A stretch of 7,753 bases of DNA from Candidatus Diapherotrites archaeon CG08_land_8_20_14_0_20_30_16 (GTDB taxonomy: Archaea > Iainarchaeota > Iainarchaeia > Iainarchaeales > 0-14-0-20-30-16): positions 1 through 7,753 of the forward strand of contig PEXK01000048.1 in assembly GCA_002779075.1 (NCBI GenBank). The letters are read 5' to 3'. The position numbers were made by a program, and so were the translations under genes. The notes below the pieces were generated by a model. That model saw nothing but the letters and a program-made list of their open reading frames with translations. It was not told the origin of the DNA and did no database searches. Of the stretch, positions 1 to 7,753 are shown one piece after another; position 1 is the first letter of the stretch, and every line of letters starts with the position of its first letter.

Positions 1-308
1 CCTGAAGATTCTAAAGAAGCATCTTTTGCTAGACTAGGATAATTATCATACAAATATTGGCCTGTAAAATCAATCTGAGTATTATCAGAAACAAACCAAG
101 GCAAAACAGAACTGCCTACAAGTTCATAACCACCAACTGACTCGACCTGATAATACAAAGCTGTTTCTTTTTCTATTTCTTCATTTTGCATTTCATAACT
201 AAATTTATTTACTGTGACGTTTGGAACGAATTGCATTTTAATATCATTCTTTGATCCCATTTCATTTTTTATAGTATCTGTTACACTCATATTTAATATT
301 GTCCCTCT
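1..308 (-). other. Start of a C-terminal module conserved between the two tandem paralogues (residues 2248-2349+)
   Basis: The giant ORF reads RGTILNMSV...QFVPNVTV...ALYYQVESVGGYELVGSSVLPWFVSDNTQIDFTGQYLYDNYPSLAKDASLESS. The neighbour reads RGTVLDAKL...GFIPDLAI...SLFYEIIYNGESQIAESSLLPWFVSKESYEKTDFTGQKLFDTYPKVAVQSLSEDN. Shared exact DNA words are ggcctgtaaaatca (59..72 and 7515..7528) and agaaacaaacca (87..98 and 7549..7560). Their spacing differs by 6 nt, which is an in-frame 2-codon indel. Confidence 0.8.
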
Positions 309-3300
309 TTCTGATTCTGAATTCATACTTTTGAAATCAATATCTTTGGAAACATTTAAATGCGCTTTAGGATTTGAAGTTGTGTTATAATTTGAAAGCA
401 TTTGATTATTCAAACTAGCTGAATTTATTGTAATTAAATCACTTGTTTCTGTAAAATCTGAACCATATCCTTGTCTGTCTATTGTTCCATTCTCAACACC
501 AACTCTTCCATCAATTGGCAGGTAATAAAATACAGAATCATTAGTTACTGAGGCAATCTTTTTCAAAACAACCATAACAAAAGCATTATTCAAATCAAAA
601 CTTAATTCAGGATAAACTATATTAAAATGAACTTCATAAAGTCCTGAACCATTGGTCTGTTGGTTCTTTGTATATCCGTTATATATTATTATTCTATTAT
701 TATCAAATAAATTATCCAAGAAAGTATCTTTGATTAACTGCCCAACATTATCTGCAAATTCCGTTTCCAAATATGTTTTCTTGAAATCTTTTAAAAAGTC
801 TTGAGAATAGCCATCGTCAGCTAAATATACTTTGTAATGCAATAAATCCTGTATTGCAAATATTTGATTTTTATTATTTTCATTTATGCTTGGCAAGAAA
901 GTAAACAAATTCATTTTACCATCTGATGAAACAAAAGTAGTTGGGGTTTTTGATAAACATTGGCTCTTTAACACTTTTGCAAATAAATTCAAATCAAAAT
1001 CCATTTTCGAAACTATTTTCTCGTTTCCTGATGCATCAAACAAAGTTACAGTAATATTCAAAGTGTTGTCATAAAGTTGATTATAGCCAGAATTCAAATC
1101 TTTGATATCTAAATCCTTAACTAAAGGTATTTCAACATTCAGATATACTAAATTCGTTCCAACATCAATAGGCACCCCCTCTGACCCATAGTTTACTTGT
1201 ACTTTTTTGCCTGAAGAATCTGTTGCATAAACTTTGTATTGTGGAATTGGTTGAGGAGGATTAGAGGAAGTTAAGAAAATACCTAAATTTTTATCTAAAG
1301 TAATAGTCCAATAACCATCCTTAATACCCACATCTATTTTATCAAAGAAATTTGTACTTAAACCAGGATCTTGAAAATAGTTAATTGTTGATTCTTTATC
1401 TACTTTTTTATAATCTGGAATCATCTGGCATTTTATTCCTGAAAACTCACCCAAAAGGCTTTGTGCAAACTTCAATCTTTTCAAACCAGAAATTAATAAC
1501 TGTGTTGAATCACAATATTGTTTCACATTCCCTTCTACATCAGGGCTACAAAAGTTTTCATCAATACTATCGTCCCATTTATATTGTAATTTTGGTTTTG
1601 CATCAGGACCAGTAAAACCAACAACATCACCAGAAACATTAGTACATGCTTGTCCCACTTTGAAAGAAACCTCTTTTTCTGTGATATTGTGGAAAGCAAC
1701 ACGAATATTTCCTAATAAATGACCATCACCCAATACTCCAGAATTTATATCAATAGGATATGTTTTATAACACCATTCGGAATTGCAAGGCTTGCCATTA
1801 TAAAAAGTATTCAAATCCAAATTTGTGAAGGTTGCTTTAAACATACCAGTACCAGGGTAACCGCCAATAATTTCACCTTGATTTGCTCTTCCCCAAAGCT
1901 CTGACTTTAACTTACATGGAACAACAACATAAGTATCCCATTTAATATTATTAAATGAGCCACCACCACATTTTGGATAAAAAGTAACTGTTTTACCACT
2001 ACTTACTGTCGGGTCTTTGTCCCACCAACAATCATCTTCAGACAGGGTCAATTTAGGATCTGACCACAATATATGTTCTGTATCAACAACATAATCTTGA
2101 GAGCAGGTTAAGCTAAATTTTATGCTATCATCCCAATGTTTTGAACCTGTACAAAACCAGCCCTTACAGCCAACATGCCCTTTTATAACTTCTCTAGCAA
2201 TCAAGAATTGATAATGATCTTGGCCAGTTATTTTAAAAATATCACTGTAATTCGCGGTTCCATCTTCCCTTATTTTTATTGTATTTGTAGTTACGTTAAC
2301 ATCAGGATAATTAAGATCATTTAAAATAACAAATTTGTATTCCTGGTCATCATTTAAGTAAGTAGTAAATGCTGCAATAAATATAGTTATTCCAACCAAA
2401 AGAACACCAGCACCAATTAACCAGCCAACAAGTCTTGTAACTACTGCACCAAGAATATCAGTAGAAGATCCATGTCTAACAAGATCATCCAAATCCCCTA
2501 AATATATTTGGGAGTTTTTATTTTTTATTTGCAAAAGATTAACAAAATTGTTCACATCTGCAATAAAAAGAGAGCTTGGAATATTTGTATTGTAAACTAA
2601 CAATGTGTCTGAAAACAGCTTATTATTTAACTCATTATTTGTTTGGACGTGTGTATCCAAAAAAGGATTTTCAGAAAAAAGACCATTACTGTACGATGTT
2701 TGAACATTAACAGGCAAAATCTTAATCCTCTTATAGGACAGGTCTTTTAGTTGTTTAGCAAATATTTCTAATGCGTAAGCACCTGATACTTGAGGTCTTG
2801 ATATTTCTAATTCATTTTCCTTAGATGATAAAACAAATCCCTTATATAGGCTTGCATTATCAAATTTAAAGCCAGTATATTCATTACCTACATTCTCACC
2901 ACAACCAATTGGTATCTCCTTGTCATTTGCTTTGCAAATCATTATGTCTAGAGTTATTCCTTCACAAATATTTTTGAAAGTTAATTTAAATTTATCTTGA
3001 GGCAAAGCATAAGTTAGTGAACTATCAGGAGTATACTGCCCTAAAGACAAGACTAAAGTCTCTGTTATTTCTTTTCCTTTATCATCAAATACTTTCAAAC
3101 AATCTTCCAAATGCAAAACACTTACATCAAACTTCAATTCTTTTGATTCTACTTTCTTCAAGCCATCAGAAGTATTTACAAATGCAAAAATCTTTGCTTT
3201 CAAATGTTCCCTTCCAAAAATTCCTTTTGGAACAAAAGAAACAGCCCCTAAAAAGGGATTGTCCAGGTCTGCTTTCCAGTTTACTGCAAATATCTCTGGT

Positions 3301-6300
3301 ACTGATAATTTTAAGTTTGTGGTACCAGTTGAAAGACTAAATGAAAAACTGCCAATACCTAAAGAACCTGAATCATGTAGCAAAACTAAATAAGCAGAAT
3401 CAAAAACAACAGGATAAGGTTCTGAATATCCTTTACTGCTTGATTGAACAACACAAGTATTCAAAACAGATAAAGGAATTGTAATAGGTTTTACATCTGT
3501 TGCAAAACTTGTACTTTCAGAACCTGTGTTTAATGCAATTTCTAAACAGCCATCATCAGCATTAGTAGGATATCCCTGTGATACTATATTAATTTCAAAA
3601 GGAATTAATCTATTTATTGTCTCATCTTGAGTTCTAAATGTTACTTTGACAGCTCCAGAAAATTTAATTCCTTTTCCAATCTCAGCACTAATGTTATCAT
3701 TCAAAACTGCTTTAAAGAAGTCTTCCAATTCTAATTTAGCAATACCCGGCAGAGCGCCAACAGAATCATAATTCAATTGTATTCCTTGGATTTCTTTGTT
3801 TACGTATGTATTTGATAGATATGCTTTCATTACATCAATATTCAAAAAATTCTGCAAATTTAATGAATAATTATCAACTTGTAAATCTACGCTTTCTATT
3901 TTCAGTGTGGATGCACTATTATTTGTAATTATTAAACTGTCATAACCTTCTTTGTCTGTTGGATAAATCAAATCAATACTTAACTTTTCTTTATCAAACC
4001 CCAATATTTTGGTTGTTACTTGCAAATCCGGAGTAAAATCTTTTTGAGAATAAGATTCATAACCTTCTTTCTCAACTAATATCTGTACCAAAGTCCCAGG
4101 CGGCAAAGATGGAAGTAAACAGTCTGCTTTTCCTTGCAAATCTGTTTTTATATTTCTACAATCCCCTAAAACAAAATATGTTGTATCTGTTGGTTTCTTT
4201 ATTTTAACAGTAACAAGAGCGTCTTTTACAAAAGAATTTGTATCATCACTTACTGAAATACTTAAATTCTGTTGAATCCCGGGTGCCAATATTTTCTCGG
4301 GGAATACAGTCAAATTCAATTTTTTTGTTGTTGTTGATTTAAACAAAACAGATAATGCAGACTTATTATTTATTACCATTTTTTTATCATTATCTAAAAC
4401 AACAAAATTCAAAAAAGACTCCCCTAAAATAACTGGTTGCAAGCCTAATTGTCCAGAAATATATCTGTTCTTTATGTAATCTTTTATTTGATAACCCTTT
4501 ACAAATACACCAAAACTTTCCACCAAAGATTCAGATTTATTATCTGTTGGGCCTTTCAAATTATAATTCAAAAGTCTAATAAAAGAATGACTAGAAACAT
4601 CATTTTCAACAAAGGAAAGGGTTTCTTTTTGAGATTGTGCATTGAATATCTGCAGTGTGCCATTTTTTATAGTATTATCAGGACCACTTAAATTATTTGT
4701 CAAATCAAATGCAAACTCGTATTTTGTGTTTGGAGAAACTAAAAATTGGTCTTTTCCTTGTGATTCTAAATACAAATTAGTACTTTTATTAAGAAGAGTA
4801 TATCTTGAACAAAAATCATTATCTGTGCAAACACCAGATGCTCCTGCTAAAAATTCTTTTATTTCTGATGCAACACTTATATCATCAATTAACAAATCCC
4901 AACTAATCTTCAAAGAATCAAGAATTTTTACTGAACCATCATTCTTTACTTTCACTTTATAATATACATTATAAACTCCTGGATTTGTTTCATTCCAAAA
5001 TGATGAAATTATTTTTGCTTTGCCTATGGTGTTTTGTTCCATTTTGGAATCCAAATATTTTAAATCATAATTTGCAGAAGTATATGCATCTATTAATGAA
5101 AGTTTTTCAGCATCCAAATTTTGGTCATCGCCAACATTTAATTTGAATTCAAAAGGTTTTGATTCATACATATAAATCTTGAAACCTAAATAATAAATCC
5201 CGCCAATATTCAAACTAGGTTCTTCTGCACCTTCGAAATCACTAAAAATACCCAAGAAATCTACTTTTGGTTCTGCTTGTGTTAAAGGAACCATTGAAAC
5301 AGTGCTTTGCCAATTATAATTAGTCATTAACAAACGGGACTCACTGTAATAAGGTAGATAATTATCTGCTTTAACAATATAGTATAAGGAGGTGCCGGCT
5401 TTGAAAGAATGGGTTGTTTCGCCAGATGCGCTCAAAATCTTGCTTCCAGATTCTGTTAATGGTTTTTTATAAAATGTAACTAAAGCATTACTTTTTGGAT
5501 TATTTGATTCATCTGTTACTTTCAATTTCAACATAGAATAGCCTACAGGTAAAACTATATTGACATCTAATTCAGGAATTTTATCTGATTCTGCACCACT
5601 TAAAACAACAGTATTACTATATGCTTCATTAAAACCATTATATACTCTAAATTGATAGCTTCCAATTTGTAAAAGTGATGTTGACAAACCATTTTTATCT
5701 GTTGCAGGAAAGTTATCCAAAGATAATAATTCAAACTGTGTTGCAGGATCAATAACAAATACTTTTGCACCTTCTATAGGTAGATTGTCTTCATCCAACA
5801 CTTTAACATTAACTTTGACACTGTTATACAAAGTCTTTGTTTTTAGTGTGAAGATTTTTTCATTAAAAGAAGAATTAATTTGAATTTCATTATTTGCTAA
5901 AGCAAAAACTGAGTTTGAATCTGGTTCAAAATCCAAAAAATAATTATCTAATTTTGATACAGGAATACTTATTGCTCCATTCGATGTTGTGCCTTTGAAA
6001 ACTATTTTGCCTGTATTGTCTTTTAGCACTGAGTTCCCATTTATGTGCACATTGTTTTCATCAACAAAAGACAGAGAAACTATTTTTGCAAAAGTGTTCT
6101 CCAATGTAAAAACAATATTATTTACTTTATTTTCACTTGTTTTTATTTGTTGTGATGTATCCAAATAATCTTCTTTGGAAGCATAAACAATATAATTCCC
6201 AACAGGAAGATTTGTAAATAATTTTGTATTTCCAAAATCATTAGTTGTATCTTTATCTATTTCTTCTTTTTGGTTTTGAGCATCAAAGATACTTACTTTA

Positions 6301-7049
6301 GCACCAGAAACTGGCATAGCATTTACATCATAAACAGTTACTTTTATACTTCCTGCTGGCAAAGATGTTTGATTTTCTAAAACCTGTGTAATTAACCCTA
6401 AAGTAACAACACAAGATGTTGAATCACATGTCTCGCCAGACAATACTTTGTACCCATCTATTTGAACACTTATTCCTAAAATACCACAATTTTCAGGAAC
6501 ATTTATTGTTGTTGAACCAGAAGAAACATTTCTTTCTTTTTGAGCATCACCCAATTCTGTTGAGTCACAATTAAAACTTATATGTGCTGTTTTTGTTATT
6601 GTAATTCCTGATTCATCAAACAAAAAGATTGTTGTTGGCAGCATTTTGTAAATTCTATTCAAAGAAACATTAATAGTATCTGAGAAATCATATTCTGATT
6701 TTGAAATTGCATATTTCTTTATTGATATTGATTCAAGCGAAAGTTTATCGCTAACAGGCAATTCTAAAATAGCTTTTCCTTTTATTGCTTTCCCATCAAA
6801 TGTATTTCCATTTACATTTACACTGAAATCAAAACTCTCCACTAATTGGATGTTGTCTGATTTGAAAATAAATGTAACTTGTTCCTTTGAAGGAATTAAC
6901 AACCAAACAACCAAGCCTATAATTAATAAAATAACAACACATAATACAATCTTCAAAACTAGGCTAGATTTGATCTTCTCAACAAAGGACTTAAAAAAAG
7001 TCTTTGTTTGCTCAAAACTGTAGCTTTGTTTGTTATCTTCTAAAGGCAT
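1..7049 (-). CDS. Giant membrane-anchored, repeat-containing surface/adhesin-like protein; at least 2349 aa, 3' end cut by the window edge; absent from the supplied ORF track
   Basis: Manual translation of the reverse complement from ATG 7049..7047 gives 2349 sense codons plus 2 leftover nt (7049 = 3 x 2349 + 2). No TAA, TAG or TGA occurs in frame. The nearest upstream in-frame stop is TAA at 7094..7092, with no canonical start between it and the ATG. Residue numbering was checked against TGG codons at 5310..5312 (W580), 3276..3278 (W1258) and 2133..2135 (W1639). In DNA this AT-rich, an open frame of this length cannot be chance. The translation begins MPLEDNKQSYSFEQTKTFFKSFVEKIKSSLVLKIVLCVVILLIIGLVVWLLIPSKEQ. 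The product name is inferred from architecture only. Confidence 0.9.
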   Translation of the reverse strand, partial: MPLEDNKQSYSFEQTKTFFKSFVEKIKSSLVLKIVLCVVILLIIGLVVWLLIPSKEQVTFIFKSDNIQLVESFDFSVNVNGNTFDGKAIKGKAILELPVSDKLSLESISIKKYAISKSEYDFSDTINVSLNRIYKMLPTTIFLFDESGITITKTAHISFNCDSTELGDAQKERNVSSGSTTINVPENCGILGISVQIDGYKVLSGETCDSTSCVVTLGLITQVLENQTSLPAGSIKVTVYDVNAMPVSGAKVSIFDAQNQKEEIDKDTTNDFGNTKLFTNLPVGNYIVYASKEDYLDTSQQIKTSENKVNNIVFTLENTFAKIVSLSFVDENNVHINGNSVLKDNTGKIVFKGTTSNGAISIPVSKLDNYFLDFEPDSNSVFALANNEIQINSSFNEKIFTLKTKTLYNSVKVNVKVLDEDNLPIEGAKVFVIDPATQFELLSLDNFPATDKNGLSTSLLQIGSYQFRVYNGFNEAYSNTVVLSGAESDKIPELDVNIVLPVGYSMLKLKVTDESNNPKSNALVTFYKKPLTESGSKILSASGETTHSFKAGTSLYYIVKADNYLPYYSESRLLMTNYNWQSTVSMVPLTQAEPKVDFLGIFSDFEGAEEPSLNIGGIYYLGFKIYMYESKPFEFKLNVGDDQNLDAEKLSLIDAYTSANYDLKYLDSKMEQNTIGKAKIISSFWNETNPGVYNVYYKVKVKNDGSVKILDSLKISWDLLIDDISVASEIKEFLAGASGVCTDNDFCSRYTLLNKSTNLYLESQGKDQFLVSPNTKYEFAFDLTNNLSGPDNTIKNGTLQIFNAQSQKETLSFVENDVSSHSFIRLLNYNLKGPTDNKSESLVESFGVFVKGYQIKDYIKNRYISGQLGLQPVILGESFLNFVVLDNDKKMVINNKSALSVLFKSTTTKKLNLTVFPEKILAPGIQQNLSISVSDDTNSFVKDALVTVKIKKPTDTTYFVLGDCRNIKTDLQGKADCLLPSLPPGTLVQILVEKEGYESYSQKDFTPDLQVTTKILGFDKEKLSIDLIYPTDKEGYDSLIITNNSASTLKIESVDLQVDNYSLNLQNFLNIDVMKAYLSNTYVNKEIQGIQLNYDSVGALPGIAKLELEDFFKAVLNDNISAEIGKGIKFSGAVKVTFRTQDETINRLIPFEINIVSQGYPTNADDGCLEIALNTGSESTSFATDVKPITIPLSVLNTCVVQSSSKGYSEPYPVVFDSAYLVLLHDSGSLGIGSFSFSLSTGTTNLKLSVPEIFAVNWKADLDNPFLGAVSFVPKGIFGREHLKAKIFAFVNTSDGLKKVESKELKFDVSVLHLEDCLKVFDDKGKEITETLVLSLGQYTPDSSLTYALPQDKFKLTFKNICEGITLDIMICKANDKEIPIGCGENVGNEYTGFKFDNASLYKGFVLSSKENELEISRPQVSGAYALEIFAKQLKDLSYKRIKILPVNVQTSYSNGLFSENPFLDTHVQTNNELNNKLFSDTLLVYNTNIPSSLFIADVNNFVNLLQIKNKNSQIYLGDLDDLVRHGSSTDILGAVVTRLVGWLIGAGVLLVGITIFIAAFTTYLNDDQEYKFVILNDLNYPDVNVTTNTIKIREDGTANYSDIFKITGQDHYQFLIAREVIKGHVGCKGWFCTGSKHWDDSIKFSLTCSQDYVVDTEHILWSDPKLTLSEDDCWWDKDPTVSSGKTVTFYPKCGGGSFNNIKWDTYVVVPCKLKSELWGRANQGEIIGGYPGTGMFKATFTNLDLNTFYNGKPCNSEWCYKTYPIDINSGVLGDGHLLGNIRVAFHNITEKEVSFKVGQACTNVSGDVVGFTGPDAKPKLQYKWDDSIDENFCSPDVEGNVKQYCDSTQLLISGLKRLKFAQSLLGEFSGIKCQMIPDYKKVDKESTINYFQDPGLSTNFFDKIDVGIKDGYWTITLDKNLGIFLTSSNPPQPIPQYKVYATDSSGKKVQVNYGSEGVPIDVGTNLVYLNVEIPLVKDLDIKDLNSGYNQLYDNTLNITVTLFDASGNEKIVSKMDFDLNLFAKVLKSQCLSKTPTTFVSSDGKMNLFTFLPSINENNKNQIFAIQDLLHYKVYLADDGYSQDFLKDFKKTYLETEFADNVGQLIKDTFLDNLFDNNRIIIYNGYTKNQQTNGSGLYEVHFNIVYPELSFDLNNAFVMVVLKKIASVTNDSVFYYLPIDGRVGVENGTIDRQGYGSDFTETSDLITINSASLNNQMLSNYNTTSNPKAHLNVSKDIDFKSMNSESERGTILNMSVTDTIKNEMGSKNDIKMQFVPNVTVNKFSYEMQNEEIEKETALYYQVESVGGYELVGSSVLPWFVSDNTQIDFTGQYLYDNYPSLAKDASLESS
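1428..2168 (-). other. Cys/Trp-rich module (residues 1628-1874) with a recurring K-x-W-D-[DT]...C motif; no family recognised
   Basis: There are 12 Cys (1628, 1633, 1649, 1674, 1694, 1712, 1755, 1760, 1802, 1834, 1846, 1874) and 9 Trp (1631-1825) in about 250 aa. The ~1490 aa between the two helices hold only 4 Trp. Motif copies are SKHWDDSIKFSLTC, NIKWDTYVVVPC and QYKWDDSIDENFC. Two C-x4-C pairs occur (CKGWFC, CNSEWC). Confidence 0.6.
2364..2432 (-). other. Internal hydrophobic, transmembrane-like helix (residues 1540-1562) splitting the giant protein into ~1490-aa and >785-aa parts
   Basis: The segment LVGWLIGAGVLLVGITIFIAAFT is 23 uncharged residues. It is flanked by ...DILGAVVTR on the N side and YLNDDQEYK on the C side. 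The Y1564 codon at 2358..2360 is in frame. Confidence 0.7.
4020..4319 (-). other. Fifth, isolated carboxypeptidase-regulatory-like / PEGA-like repeat (residues 911-1010)
   Basis: The segment reads LNLTVFPEKILAPGIQQNLSISVSDDTNSFVKDALVTVKIKKPTDTTYFVLGDCRNIKTDLQGKADCLLPSLPPGTLVQILVEKEGYESY. The ending V-E-K-E-G-Y-E resembles the PEGA signature. An inserted Cys pair is present (C964/C977). Confidence 0.5.
5283..6350 (-). other. Four consecutive carboxypeptidase-regulatory-like / PEGA-like beta-sandwich repeats (residues 234-317, 322-405, 411-500, 505-589)
   Basis: Units of about 85 aa recur with the family pattern: alternating hydrophobic strand, D-x-N-x-P-[VI]-x-G-A-x-V, T-[DN]-x-x-G, G-x-Y, then Y. 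Examples are SIKVTVYDVNAMPVSGAKVSIFD...GNYIVYASKEDY and VKVNVKVLDEDNLPIEGAKVFVID...TDKNGLSTSLLQIGSYQFRVY. Others are KLKVTDESNNPKSNALVTFY...YYIVKADNYLPY and VSLSFVDENNVHINGNSVLKDNTGKIVFKGTTSNGAISIP. The nt boundaries are 6099..6350, 5835..6086, 5550..5819 and 5283..5537. Assignment is by eye, not by HMM. Confidence 0.6.
6894..6962 (-). other. N-terminal transmembrane signal-anchor helix (residues ~30-52) of the giant protein
   Basis: The segment LVLKIVLCVVILLIIGLVVWLLI is 23 mostly hydrophobic residues with one Lys near its N-terminal end. It follows a Lys-rich 29-aa tail (KTFFKSFVEKIKSS) and is followed by PSKEQ. No obvious AxA signal-peptidase site was seen. Confidence 0.75.
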
Positions 7050-7060
7050 AATACCACGAG

Positions 7061-7080
7061 TGTTCTTTCCTGTTCTTTCC
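7061..7080. repeat. Perfect 2 x 10-bp tandem direct repeat (tgttctttcc tgttctttcc; minus strand GGAAAGAACA x2) 12 nt upstream of the giant ORF start
   Basis: Read directly from the sequence. Positions 7061..7070 and 7071..7080 are identical. The repeat lies between the TATA-like element (7081..7088) and the ATG at 7049. Confidence 0.9.
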
Positions 7081-7110
7081 TTTATAAATATTTAATAGTC
7101 TTTTATATAT
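7081..7110 (-). promoter_or_regulatory. Candidate promoter for the giant ORF: palindromic TATA-like octamer tttataaa (7081..7088) plus a second AT-rich box (minus strand ATATATAAAA, 7110..7101)
   Basis: The minus strand reads ...ATATATAAAAGACTATTAAATATTTATAAAGGAAAGAACAGGAAAGAACACTCGTGGTATTATG. TTTATAAA resembles the archaeal TATA consensus (TTTAWATA-like). It is centred about 35 nt before the ATG, which would imply a leader of only ~8-10 nt. No convincing bacterial -35 (TTGACA-like) sits 17 bp upstream of a -10. No strong GGAGG lies 5-10 nt before the ATG. The call is speculative without transcript data. Confidence 0.3.
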
Positions 7111-7132
7111 TTAACTATTATTACACTAAACA

Positions 7133-7146
7133 GCATAATTTTATGC
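7133..7146 (-). terminator. Small perfect palindrome gcataattttatgc downstream of the upstream gene's stop; weak hairpin-terminator candidate
   Basis: The GCATAA/TTATGC arms are separated by 2 nt, giving in practice a ~5-bp stem with a 4-nt loop. The palindrome begins 34 nt after the TAG at 7182..7180. On the minus strand it is followed by TGTTTAG, which is only a short T run. The stem is AT-rich and short, so predicted stability is low. Confidence 0.2.
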
Positions 7147-7179
7147 GTTGGAAGTCACTTTTTGGGGTTATGTACACTA

Positions 7180-7753
7180 CTAATGAGGTTCATTAACAAA
7201 TACTCTTGTGCTTAACTCGTTTCCTGAAATACAAAGCAAATTAGAATCTATACCCTCTAAGACACTATTGAGATTTTCTATACCAAACTCTTTAGTATTA
7301 TTTATCTTTATGTTTGGATTTTCTAAATTAACTGTCTTTACATCTTCTATTAGAACAGAAGCATTGCTTGGAGCATAAATATAAGAATAAATGTTATAAT
7401 CTGCTAAATCTGTTACAGCTTCTTTAGTGTATTCTATTTTTGATGCTTTATTTGACACATTATCTTCAGATAATGATTGAACTGCAACTTTAGGATAGGT
7501 ATCAAAGAGTTTCTGGCCTGTAAAATCAGTTTTTTCATAGCTTTCTTTAGAAACAAACCAGGGTAAAAGGGAGCTTTCTGCAATCTGTGATTCTCCATTA
7601 TATATTATTTCATAGAAAAGACTTACAGGAGAATCTATTTGCTTGTTTTTCATTTTTGCTTCTGCTTTCCAAATTGCTAAATCAGGGATAAACCCAATAG
7701 AAATGATATTAGTGGGTGCTTTAGACAATTTAGCATCTAAAACAGTGCCTCTT
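7180..7753 (-). CDS. C-terminal 190 codons plus stop of an upstream paralogue of the giant protein; 5' end cut by the window edge
   Basis: This is track ORF 7180..7728, but position 7728 is a TTG. The frame stays open upstream to the edge (RGTVLDAK precedes it), so the listed start is an artefact. The stop is TAG at 7182..7180. The product aligns with the giant ORF tail: RGT[IV]L, then LPWFVS, DFTGQ-L-D-YP. Confidence 0.85.
   Translation of the reverse strand, partial: RGTVLDAKLSKAPTNIISIGFIPDLAIWKAEAKMKNKQIDSPVSLFYEIIYNGESQIAESSLLPWFVSKESYEKTDFTGQKLFDTYPKVAVQSLSEDNVSNKASKIEYTKEAVTDLADYNIYSYIYAPSNASVLIEDVKTVNLENPNIKINNTKEFGIENLNSVLEGIDSNLLCISGNELSTRVFVNEPH

Follow-up and report, generated by a model that had tools for sequence, protein, structure and literature searches.

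A conserved cysteine- and tryptophan-rich module in a giant membrane protein of DPANN archaea

What is the compact island of cysteine and tryptophan residues that stands out in a giant protein of an ultrasmall archaeon? The question is raised by contig PEXK01000048.1 of Candidatus Diapherotrites archaeon CG08_land_8_20_14_0_20_30_16, of which a stretch of 7753 nt (the window; about 30% GC) was analysed. Nearly all of the window is a single minus-strand open reading frame (ORF), which encodes most of a giant membrane protein with the island in it. DPANN archaea are believed to rely on contacts with other cells, and their surface machinery is almost wholly uncharacterised. An earlier reading based on the sequence alone (the sequence-only reading) had taken the island for an internally repeated, lectin-like module of no named family and for the best candidate for the functional core of the protein. 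Here, the composition and the conservation pattern of the island are described, along with the family and taxonomic range of the protein, the tandem cassette in which its gene lies and the absence of matches to known families.

The island is a real, conserved and uncharacterised domain with no internal repeat. As the alignments show, it is a composite, in which a subfamily-specific N-terminal half (N-half) is joined to the first element (C-half) of a C-terminal region common to the whole family. The explanation that we favour, with a probability of about 0.55, is a domain with a structural or recognition role that is extracellular, is stapled by disulfides and lies next to the membrane in a giant, acidic, membrane-anchored surface protein of DPANN archaea; we infer its location, its disulfides and its part in adhesion or recognition from the evidence set out below.

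The island and its protein family

The island comprises residues 1628–1874, which correspond exactly to window positions 1428–2168 on the minus strand. Counts made from the translation reproduced the earlier ones: 12 of the 28 Cys and nine of the 17 Trp residues of the in-window protein lie here, the Trp residues between positions 1631 and 1825, and the peptides quoted at the time (SKHWDDSIKFSLTC, NIKWDTYVVVPC, QYKWDDSIDENFC, HILWSDPKLTLSEDDCWWDKD, CKGWFC and CNSEWC) are all present. The island is as sharp as it had been said to be. The best 247-residue stretch contains 21 Cys and Trp residues, a number reached in none of 5000 residue shuffles; Cys alone was matched in three and Trp alone in nine of the 5000. 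The module contains 4.9% Cys and 3.6% Trp, as against 0.8% and 0.4% in the rest of the protein.

The repeats proposed by the sequence-only reading did not withstand comparison. A K-x-W-D-[DT] motif had been assigned to three segments; KHWDD fits it, but the other two segments read K-W-D-[DT]. When five Trp/Cys segments were compared in ten pairwise shuffle tests, the pair WDDSI..C (1639) and WDDSI..C (1825) alone was mildly unusual (p = 0.004, uncorrected), and hhalign profile–profile comparison of four module sub-segments gave probabilities of 0.1–3.6%. At the three motif sites, the homologues have TWTD, ELET and Y-x-W, and the tandem paralogue encoded upstream lacks the Trp of the second site. 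Lectin folds built of repeats (β-trefoil, β-propeller and tandem-repeat lectins) were rejected together with the internal repeat: no repeats are conserved, and the match of a β-trefoil lectin to the longer structural model described below was non-significant, with a probability of 0.07–0.11. Rather than a repeat, the additional Trp and Cys residues of the window protein and its tandem paralogue appear to be a lineage-specific embellishment.

The gene begins with an ATG at position 7049 and runs open, with no stop codon, to the left edge of the window, which lacks the last 94 codons. The full-length protein has 2443 residues, as in two public sequences, P0001 and P0152, that are 99% identical to it. 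An exhaustive HMMER/phmmer search with residues 1540–2349 against representatives clustered at 50% identity retrieved 216 family representatives, of which 119 reached E ≤ 1e-10; the 150 listed have phmmer E values from 0 to 1e-8. A typical member has 2200–3100 residues and comprises an N-terminal hydrophobic anchor, found by hydropathy scan in nearly all full-length members, about 1500 residues with CarboxypepD_reg or immunoglobulin-like (Ig-like) domains, in many cases another hydrophobic stretch around residue 1500 and, at the C-terminus, a conserved region of some 650–700 residues. The window protein is a member: the invariant columns of the C-terminal region (W..C..YCD[AS]TQ, DG[YF]S.DF..DF and FYY.P.DG.VG..RQGYG) are all present in it. 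The PF13620 domain, its sole Pfam-recognisable part, is also found in homologues P0002, P0012 and P0016.

All related loci in GTDB genomes belong to DPANN archaea, namely Candidatus Diapherotrites, Iainarchaeum or metagenome-assembled genomes named ‘archaeon’, and the source organisms include Micrarchaeota metagenome-assembled genomes. As far as seen, the family is confined to DPANN archaea. In the NCBI database, its members are called ‘hypothetical protein’ or ‘carboxypeptidase-like regulatory domain-containing protein’ (for example, PIU22524.1, MEW6295807.1, MDO8537984.1 and MBU1930772.1), and literature searches found no description of the giant-protein family. A metagenome scan with the C-terminus of the paralogue gave no match. 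A word-indexed protein search with the module and with a 12-sequence alignment found no relatives and missed even P0001, so it is uninformative as to rarity.

The statement that no named family matches the module was upheld. Neither the single sequence nor a 12-sequence profile gave a match in searches of Pfam, NCBIfam, PHROGs and PDB sequences. Pfam also left the module unmatched in each of 12 subfamily members, and both the module and the C-terminal region in three full-length relatives. The C-terminal region likewise gave no match in Pfam, NCBIfam and PHROGs searches of the whole protein or in PDB searches with single sequences and two profiles. Foldseek with a model of the module found nothing in the PDB at E ≤ 0.2; its best matches, H-type lectins and the tips of phage tail fibres and tailspikes, were non-significant (E = 0.22–1, template modelling (TM) score ≤ 0.43). 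The model of 774 residues that includes the C-terminal region matched only generic Ig-like domains in the PDB, none at E ≤ 1e-3, and its matches in BFVD had TM scores below 0.2. The C-terminal region is without sequence or structural relatives in Pfam, the PDB or BFVD. A viral origin was considered and rejected, since a tblastn search of 50,697 phage records found nothing similar.

Architecture and conservation of the two halves

AlphaFold2 models were built for residues 1576–2349 with an alignment of 66 sequences (predicted local distance difference test (pLDDT) 75.5, predicted TM score 0.71) and for the module only, residues 1590–1890, with 40 sequences (pLDDT 70.4). In both models, the N-half is rich in β-structure, with six strands within residues 1613–1714, a short helix and two further strands, and the C-half is well defined and ends in a helix of residues 1848–1868. 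The pLDDT is about 60–96 over residues 1613–1725.

The N-half was detected only in a close clade (P0002–P0007; loci L001–L004, L016 and L017) and, more weakly, in six other proteins (P0042, P0044, P0095, P0085, P0050 and P0074). Among the 150 listed representatives this makes about a dozen, in addition to these loci. A TGxxxY motif before the module is conserved in the 12-sequence subfamily. All 11 sequences with the N-half have C1649, C1712 and W1719, while ten of them have C1694 and nine C1674. Where the window subfamily has the N-half, most family members have a shorter segment with a Cys pair and an A.EH.HGD..H motif, located just upstream of the W..C..YCDATQ element (for example, in P0010, P0013 and P0017–P0020); the motif looks like a metal site. 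Homology between this segment and the N-half of the window protein is unsupported (hhalign probability 0.3%).

The C-half follows the pattern G..C1802..G.V.GFTG..A.PK..Y.W1825....FC1834......Y-C1846-D-S-T-Q, then a helix and C1874. W1825 is kept in 127, C1834 in 129 and C1846 in all of 131 sequences; C1802 is conserved in at least 90% of the family and C1874 in about 87%. The residues of the island therefore fall into layers: C1802, W1825, C1834, C1846 and C1874 are family-wide, C1649, C1674, C1694, C1712 and W1719 belong to the subfamily, C1755, W1759 and C1760 to the close clade, and C1628 and C1633 are private to the window protein. Of the other Trp residues, W1676 is conserved in the close clade, as is W1759. 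Private or variable positions are W1631, W1662 and W1704, the last two being essentially unconserved, and W1675 is polymorphic (W/L) between the window protein and P0001.

The sequence-only reading had tied the importance of the island to the conservation of its Cys and Trp residues in the paralogue and in homologues. In the paralogue, the private pair is missing, but the other ten of the 12 Cys and six of the nine Trp are kept; among homologues, four Cys are conserved family-wide and four more throughout the subfamily, but most Trp are not conserved. The view of the module as the functional core can be retained in part. Its C-half opens the region conserved throughout the family, but its N-half is specific to the subfamily, and other parts of the protein are better conserved. 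Within the clade these include residues 920–1040 and 400–600, and family-wide it is residues 2063–2339 that score best; the majority of the 150 homologues listed have their top-scoring stretch in this C-terminal region.

The domain that follows the module, residues 1881–2030, is the most variable part among close homologues. Their mean identity is 0.13 here, compared with 0.34 for the whole protein, 0.38–0.41 for the module and 0.51 for residues 920–1040. Some members of the family, moreover, lack this domain or have something else in its place, so that this domain rather than the module is the more probable determinant of specificity. The module, being moderately conserved and adjoining the hypervariable domain, looks like a conserved scaffold or base.

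Proposed topology and disulfides, and alternative functions

About 50 residues before the module, the chain passes through an internal hydrophobic segment. In relatives this segment is 45–50 residues long and has a P-x-x-G-W turn, and the hydropathy scan splits it into two adjacent stretches in P0002, P0004, P0024, P0128 and P0147. In the window protein it is one continuous stretch, of residues 1532–1555 at a threshold of 1.9 and residues 1532–1567 at 1.8. A hairpin that returns the chain to the outside is preferred to a single span because of the length and the turn of the segment in relatives and its acidic flanks on both sides. The region after the putative hairpin is as acidic as the N-terminal ectodomain (pI 4.9) and no poorer in N-x-S/T sequons, with 17 observed against 11.2 ± 3.0 expected. 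The hairpin-like segment and this acidic, sequon-rich character, like that of the N-terminal ectodomain, favour a location of the module outside the cell.

Disulfides are favoured because the Cys residues change in pairs. P0085 lacks C1674 together with C1694, P0007 lacks both Cys of the CNSEWC loop (C1755 and C1760), and the two Cys of CKGWFC were gained together. At the position of residue 2325, most members have a Cys where the window protein has a Gln, and the consensus of the close clade lacks an equivalent of the distal ‘CIG’ Cys that stands in the family consensus; by alignment, these look like a further pair lost together in the close clade. The Cys residues of the N-terminal Ig-like region are likewise arranged in close pairs (161/188, 208/213, 741/747 and 964/977).

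The extracellular domain favoured here would be built as follows. Residues from about 1613 to 1790 would form a β-sandwich stapled by two disulfides, probably C1674–C1694 and C1649–C1712 as judged from their co-occurrence, with the C-x4-C loops as lineage-specific additions. Residues from about 1791 to 1880 open the family-wide region of about 650 residues with four near-invariant Cys, an invariant Trp, Y-C-D-[AS]-T-Q and a helix. The Cys would mainly make structural disulfides, and the module would serve at the cell surface as a rigid scaffold or a recognition surface next to the hydrophobic membrane hairpin, while strain or partner specificity would more probably be sited in the hypervariable residues 1881–2030.

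Several points weigh against this explanation. The internal hydrophobic segment is absent in some members of the Micrarchaeota type. The topology was deduced from hydropathy and charge only, and a single span would place the module in the cytoplasm. The disulfide pairing is derived from co-occurrence in few sequences, and 21 of 126 members lack the equivalent of C1874 with no obvious loss of a partner. The confidence of the AlphaFold2 models is moderate (pLDDT 70–75), with low values for residues 1726–1795 in one of them. In addition, the habitats of these organisms are probably anoxic, which makes extracellular disulfides less certain.

The alternative that survives best, itself doubtful, is the one proposed originally: a lectin-like carbohydrate- or ligand-binding domain, possibly similar to H-type lectins, that recognises glycans on the surface of a partner or host cell. 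The top Foldseek matches of the module model are the H-type lectins SLL-2, the Helix pomatia and H. aspersa agglutinins and discoidin I (its C-terminal domain), together with the tips by which phage tailspikes, tail fibres and pyocins bind their receptors. H-type lectins are trimers of six-stranded β-sandwiches with a GalNAc-binding site where the protomers meet. In BFVD, a phage ‘H-type lectin domain’ was matched with probability 0.97, E = 0.053 and a TM score of 0.40. Like these proteins, the module is predicted to be a small all-β sandwich of about 100–150 residues, here on a giant surface protein, and the strain substitutions W1675L, D1679N and P1680L are grouped in one of its loops. However, all PDB matches are sub-threshold (E = 0.2–1, probability 0.15–0.38, TM score by target 0.27–0.43, root mean square deviation 5–8 Å). 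At E ≤ 1, neither the window module nor a single one of the 12 sequences of its subfamily matched the hidden Markov model of Pfam H_lectin (PF09458) or of a carbohydrate-binding module, and the conserved Cys pattern is the module's own. There is no internal repeat and most Trp are unconserved; moreover, the module adjoins the proposed membrane hairpin rather than forming a distal tip, and it is the next domain that is hypervariable.

An enzyme or ligand pocket is improbable. It would be formed by the invariant Y-C-D-x-x-Q and the invariant C-terminal Asp, Arg and Tyr residues (DG[YF]S.DF..DF, FYY.P.DG.VG and RQGYG), with C1846 as a nucleophile or ligand, for example in a hydrolase of an envelope polymer. 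The extreme conservation of polar residues in about 130 divergent sequences (C1846 in 100%; D1847, Q1850, D2079, D2084, D2088 and R2192) speaks for such a pocket, as does the metal-site-like A.EH.HGD..H motif just upstream in most of the family. The window subfamily, however, lacks this motif, no enzyme family is matched by sequence or fold, and three further near-invariant Cys are found together with C1846, as would be expected of disulfides.

Still less probable is a cytoplasmic Zn or Fe–S cluster, which supposes that the internal segment is a single transmembrane helix and that the C-terminal 870 residues lie in the cytoplasm. The continuous hydrophobic stretch of the window protein, the density of 12 Cys in 247 residues and a Lys-rich flank before the hydrophobic segment in P0042 fit this arrangement. 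The module, however, contains no CxxC or CxxH motif and no conserved His partners. Its conserved Cys residues are 12–45 residues apart, and the only two C-x4-C pairs are one private and one clade-specific. On its C-terminal side, the hydrophobic segment has an acidic flank in practically every member; the stretch has hairpin length in relatives, sequons are not depleted, and no Pfam zinc domain is matched.

More speculative, and quite unlikely, is the idea that the hairpin, the module and the C-terminal region together make a device that inserts into or bridges the membrane of a partner, so that DPANN cells of the Iainarchaeota/Micrarchaeota type dock by means of tandem giant proteins. The composition of the internal segment may resemble that of viral class I fusion peptides. 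In such a device, the module would be a rigid base or trigger domain and residues 1881–2030 the specificity determinant.

Finally, a chance fluctuation or translation artefact, to which only the chance-level similarity of the K-W-D motifs lends colour, is excluded by the shuffles and by conservation in homologues, which have the same Cys positions, and in the paralogue; the ORF, too, is intact.

The locus, comparable systems and significance

The features of the giant protein, the adjoining paralogue and a small protein of related loci are collected in Table 1. A 19-kb ENA contig, L019, is 99.87% identical across the whole window and extends it: three giant genes lie in tandem, the upstream paralogue at 2–6784, the window gene at 6915–13963 and a downstream gene at 14265–19079. 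The upstream paralogue has at least 2260 residues and a C-terminus of the same type as the window protein; its identity to the latter is 44% overall and 54% in the module. The downstream gene encodes at least 1605 residues, and only the N-terminal part of about 650 residues is common to it and the window protein. In P0001 and L019, the full-length window protein has 29 Cys.

Table 1. Coordinates of features in the window and in related loci (positions refer to the window unless a locus is named; aa, amino-acid residues).
Feature	Residues	Position	Strand	Basis or remark
Giant ORF, first 2349 of 2443 codons		1..7049	-	unnamed DPANN family of ~2200–3100-aa membrane-anchored proteins
N-terminal hydrophobic segment, probable signal-anchor	~30–52	6894..6962	-	hydropathy scan
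CarboxypepD_reg/Ig-like domain	234–317	6099..6350	-	Pfam PF13620, E = 9.5e-18
Internal G/A-rich hydrophobic segment, central GW, acidic flanks on both sides	~1532–1573	2331..2456	-	hydropathy scan; proposed membrane hairpin
Linker and predicted first β-strand, including ITGQDHYQF	1576–1627	2169..2324	-	AlphaFold2 strand, aa 1613–1624
Module N-half, Cys/Trp-rich predicted β-sandwich (domain from ~1613)	1628–1790	1680..2168	-	alignments, AlphaFold2
CKGWFC, private six-residue C-x4-C insertion	1628–1633	2151..2168	-	found in no homologue and not in the tandem paralogue
CNSEWC, clade-specific C-x4-C loop	1755–1760	1770..1787	-	in 4/5 close homologues and the paralogue
Module C-half	1791–1880	1410..1679	-	family-wide element; AlphaFold2 pLDDT 69–98 in the long model
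Hypervariable predicted β-sandwich	1881–2030	960..1409	-	directly after the module; long strands in AlphaFold2
Most conserved C-terminal region, in-window part	2031–2349	3..959	-	motifs YL.DDG[YF]S.DF..DF and FYY.P.DG.VG......RQGYG
Upstream tandem paralogue, 3′ end (last 190 codons and stop)		7180..7752	-	34% identical to the C-terminus of the giant protein
Small multi-transmembrane protein		L003 19890–20324; L004 19176–19619; L005 4171–4611; L006 12440–12871; L008 11253–11642; L010 14498–14920

Two or three tandem giant paralogues also occur in related loci (L002–L004, L006, L008, L010 and L017, in addition to L019). In L003 and L004, a gene bearing the C-terminal region is followed by a gene that lacks it; in L006, L008 and L010, both paralogues bear it. 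In six related loci, the giant cassette is followed by the gene of a conserved small protein of about 130–148 residues, which has several hydrophobic helices, is unmatched in Pfam and may act as a partner of the giant proteins or in their assembly.

The W..C..YCDSTQ element of the window gene and that of the upstream paralogue are unusually alike at the nucleotide level. A tract of 151 nt (window 1471–1621, minus strand; residues ~1810–1860) is 90% identical, and the fraction of identical residues encoded by the same codon is 0.84 here, compared with 0.59 gene-wide. This pattern of codon use may reflect a short gene-conversion tract. A second paralogue-like patch of 98 nt lies at window 5319–5415.

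Compared with L019, the window has ten nucleotide differences, all of them in the giant gene; they affect eight codons, of which all eight are changed nonsynonymously and none synonymously. Compared with P0001, there are nine amino-acid differences, all within residues 1466–2303, and three of them are those grouped in one loop of the module (W1675L, D1679N and P1680L). The spectrum of these strain-level substitutions may stem from diversifying selection or from noise in the assembly.

Between the paralogue and the window gene, the intergenic stretch 7050–7179, read in the minus sense, contains a TATA-like box, TTTATAAA, at 7088–7081, 31 nt 5′ of the ATG. Directly after the box, at 7080–7061, comes a perfect direct repeat of two copies of GGAAAGAACA that ends 11 nt before the start codon. 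Judging by these letters, the box and the repeat look like an archaeal-type promoter and leader. Two plus-strand ORFs, 1385–1615 and 1719–1904, overlap the island; they are antisense to a conserved gene and unsupported.

The closest relatives of the window protein are the other members of its own unnamed family, which are like it in length class, N-terminal anchor, Ig-like and CarboxypepD_reg domains, hydrophobic segment and C-terminal motifs; they differ in that the N-half belongs to a subfamily only, the majority having the shorter A.EH.HGD segment. Giant multi-domain surface proteins of other DPANN or CPR episymbionts reportedly include the SPEARE protein of Candidatus Nanohaloarchaeum antarcticus. 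Giants of this type resemble the window family in being very large, membrane-associated, multi-domain proteins of ultrasmall archaea with presumed cell-surface interactions. No sequence relationship can be detected, however, and only generic Ig-like folds are common to both. In the window family, unlike the SPEARE-type giants, two or three paralogues stand in tandem and are often followed by a conserved small membrane protein.

Archaeal surface-layer (S-layer) proteins, found in DPANN archaea too, are similar to the window protein in being large, acidic (pI ~4.9) and sequon-rich, and in their exposure at the surface, which for the window protein we infer. S-layer proteins are reported to be nearly free of sulfur-containing amino acids; in Candidatus Micrarchaeum harzensis the protein is SLP_Mh, with PF05123 (bioRxiv 10.1101/2021.04.28.441871). 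In contrast, the window protein contains 29 Cys and has as its anchor an N-terminal transmembrane segment and the internal hydrophobic segment. The S-layer reading was rejected: Pfam found neither PF05123 nor any other S-layer domain, and the protein is rich in Cys.

A Cys-stabilised extracellular domain in a giant surface protein of an ultrasmall archaeon is a familiar kind of structure; the family itself is undescribed. The analysis defines a family of giant membrane proteins that is widespread, with 216 representatives at 50% identity, and whose genes stand in tandem. It sets domain boundaries for the module (residues 1576–1890), the variable domain (residues 1881–2030) and the conserved core (residues 2031–2443). 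The constrained Cys and Trp residues are now mapped, and C1834, C1846, W1825, D1847 and Q1850 are targets for mutation. Should host contact or membrane bridging prove not to be the role of these proteins, the module would be one more structural domain without a known function; should it prove true, the family would provide a handle on the interactions between ultrasmall archaea and their partners.

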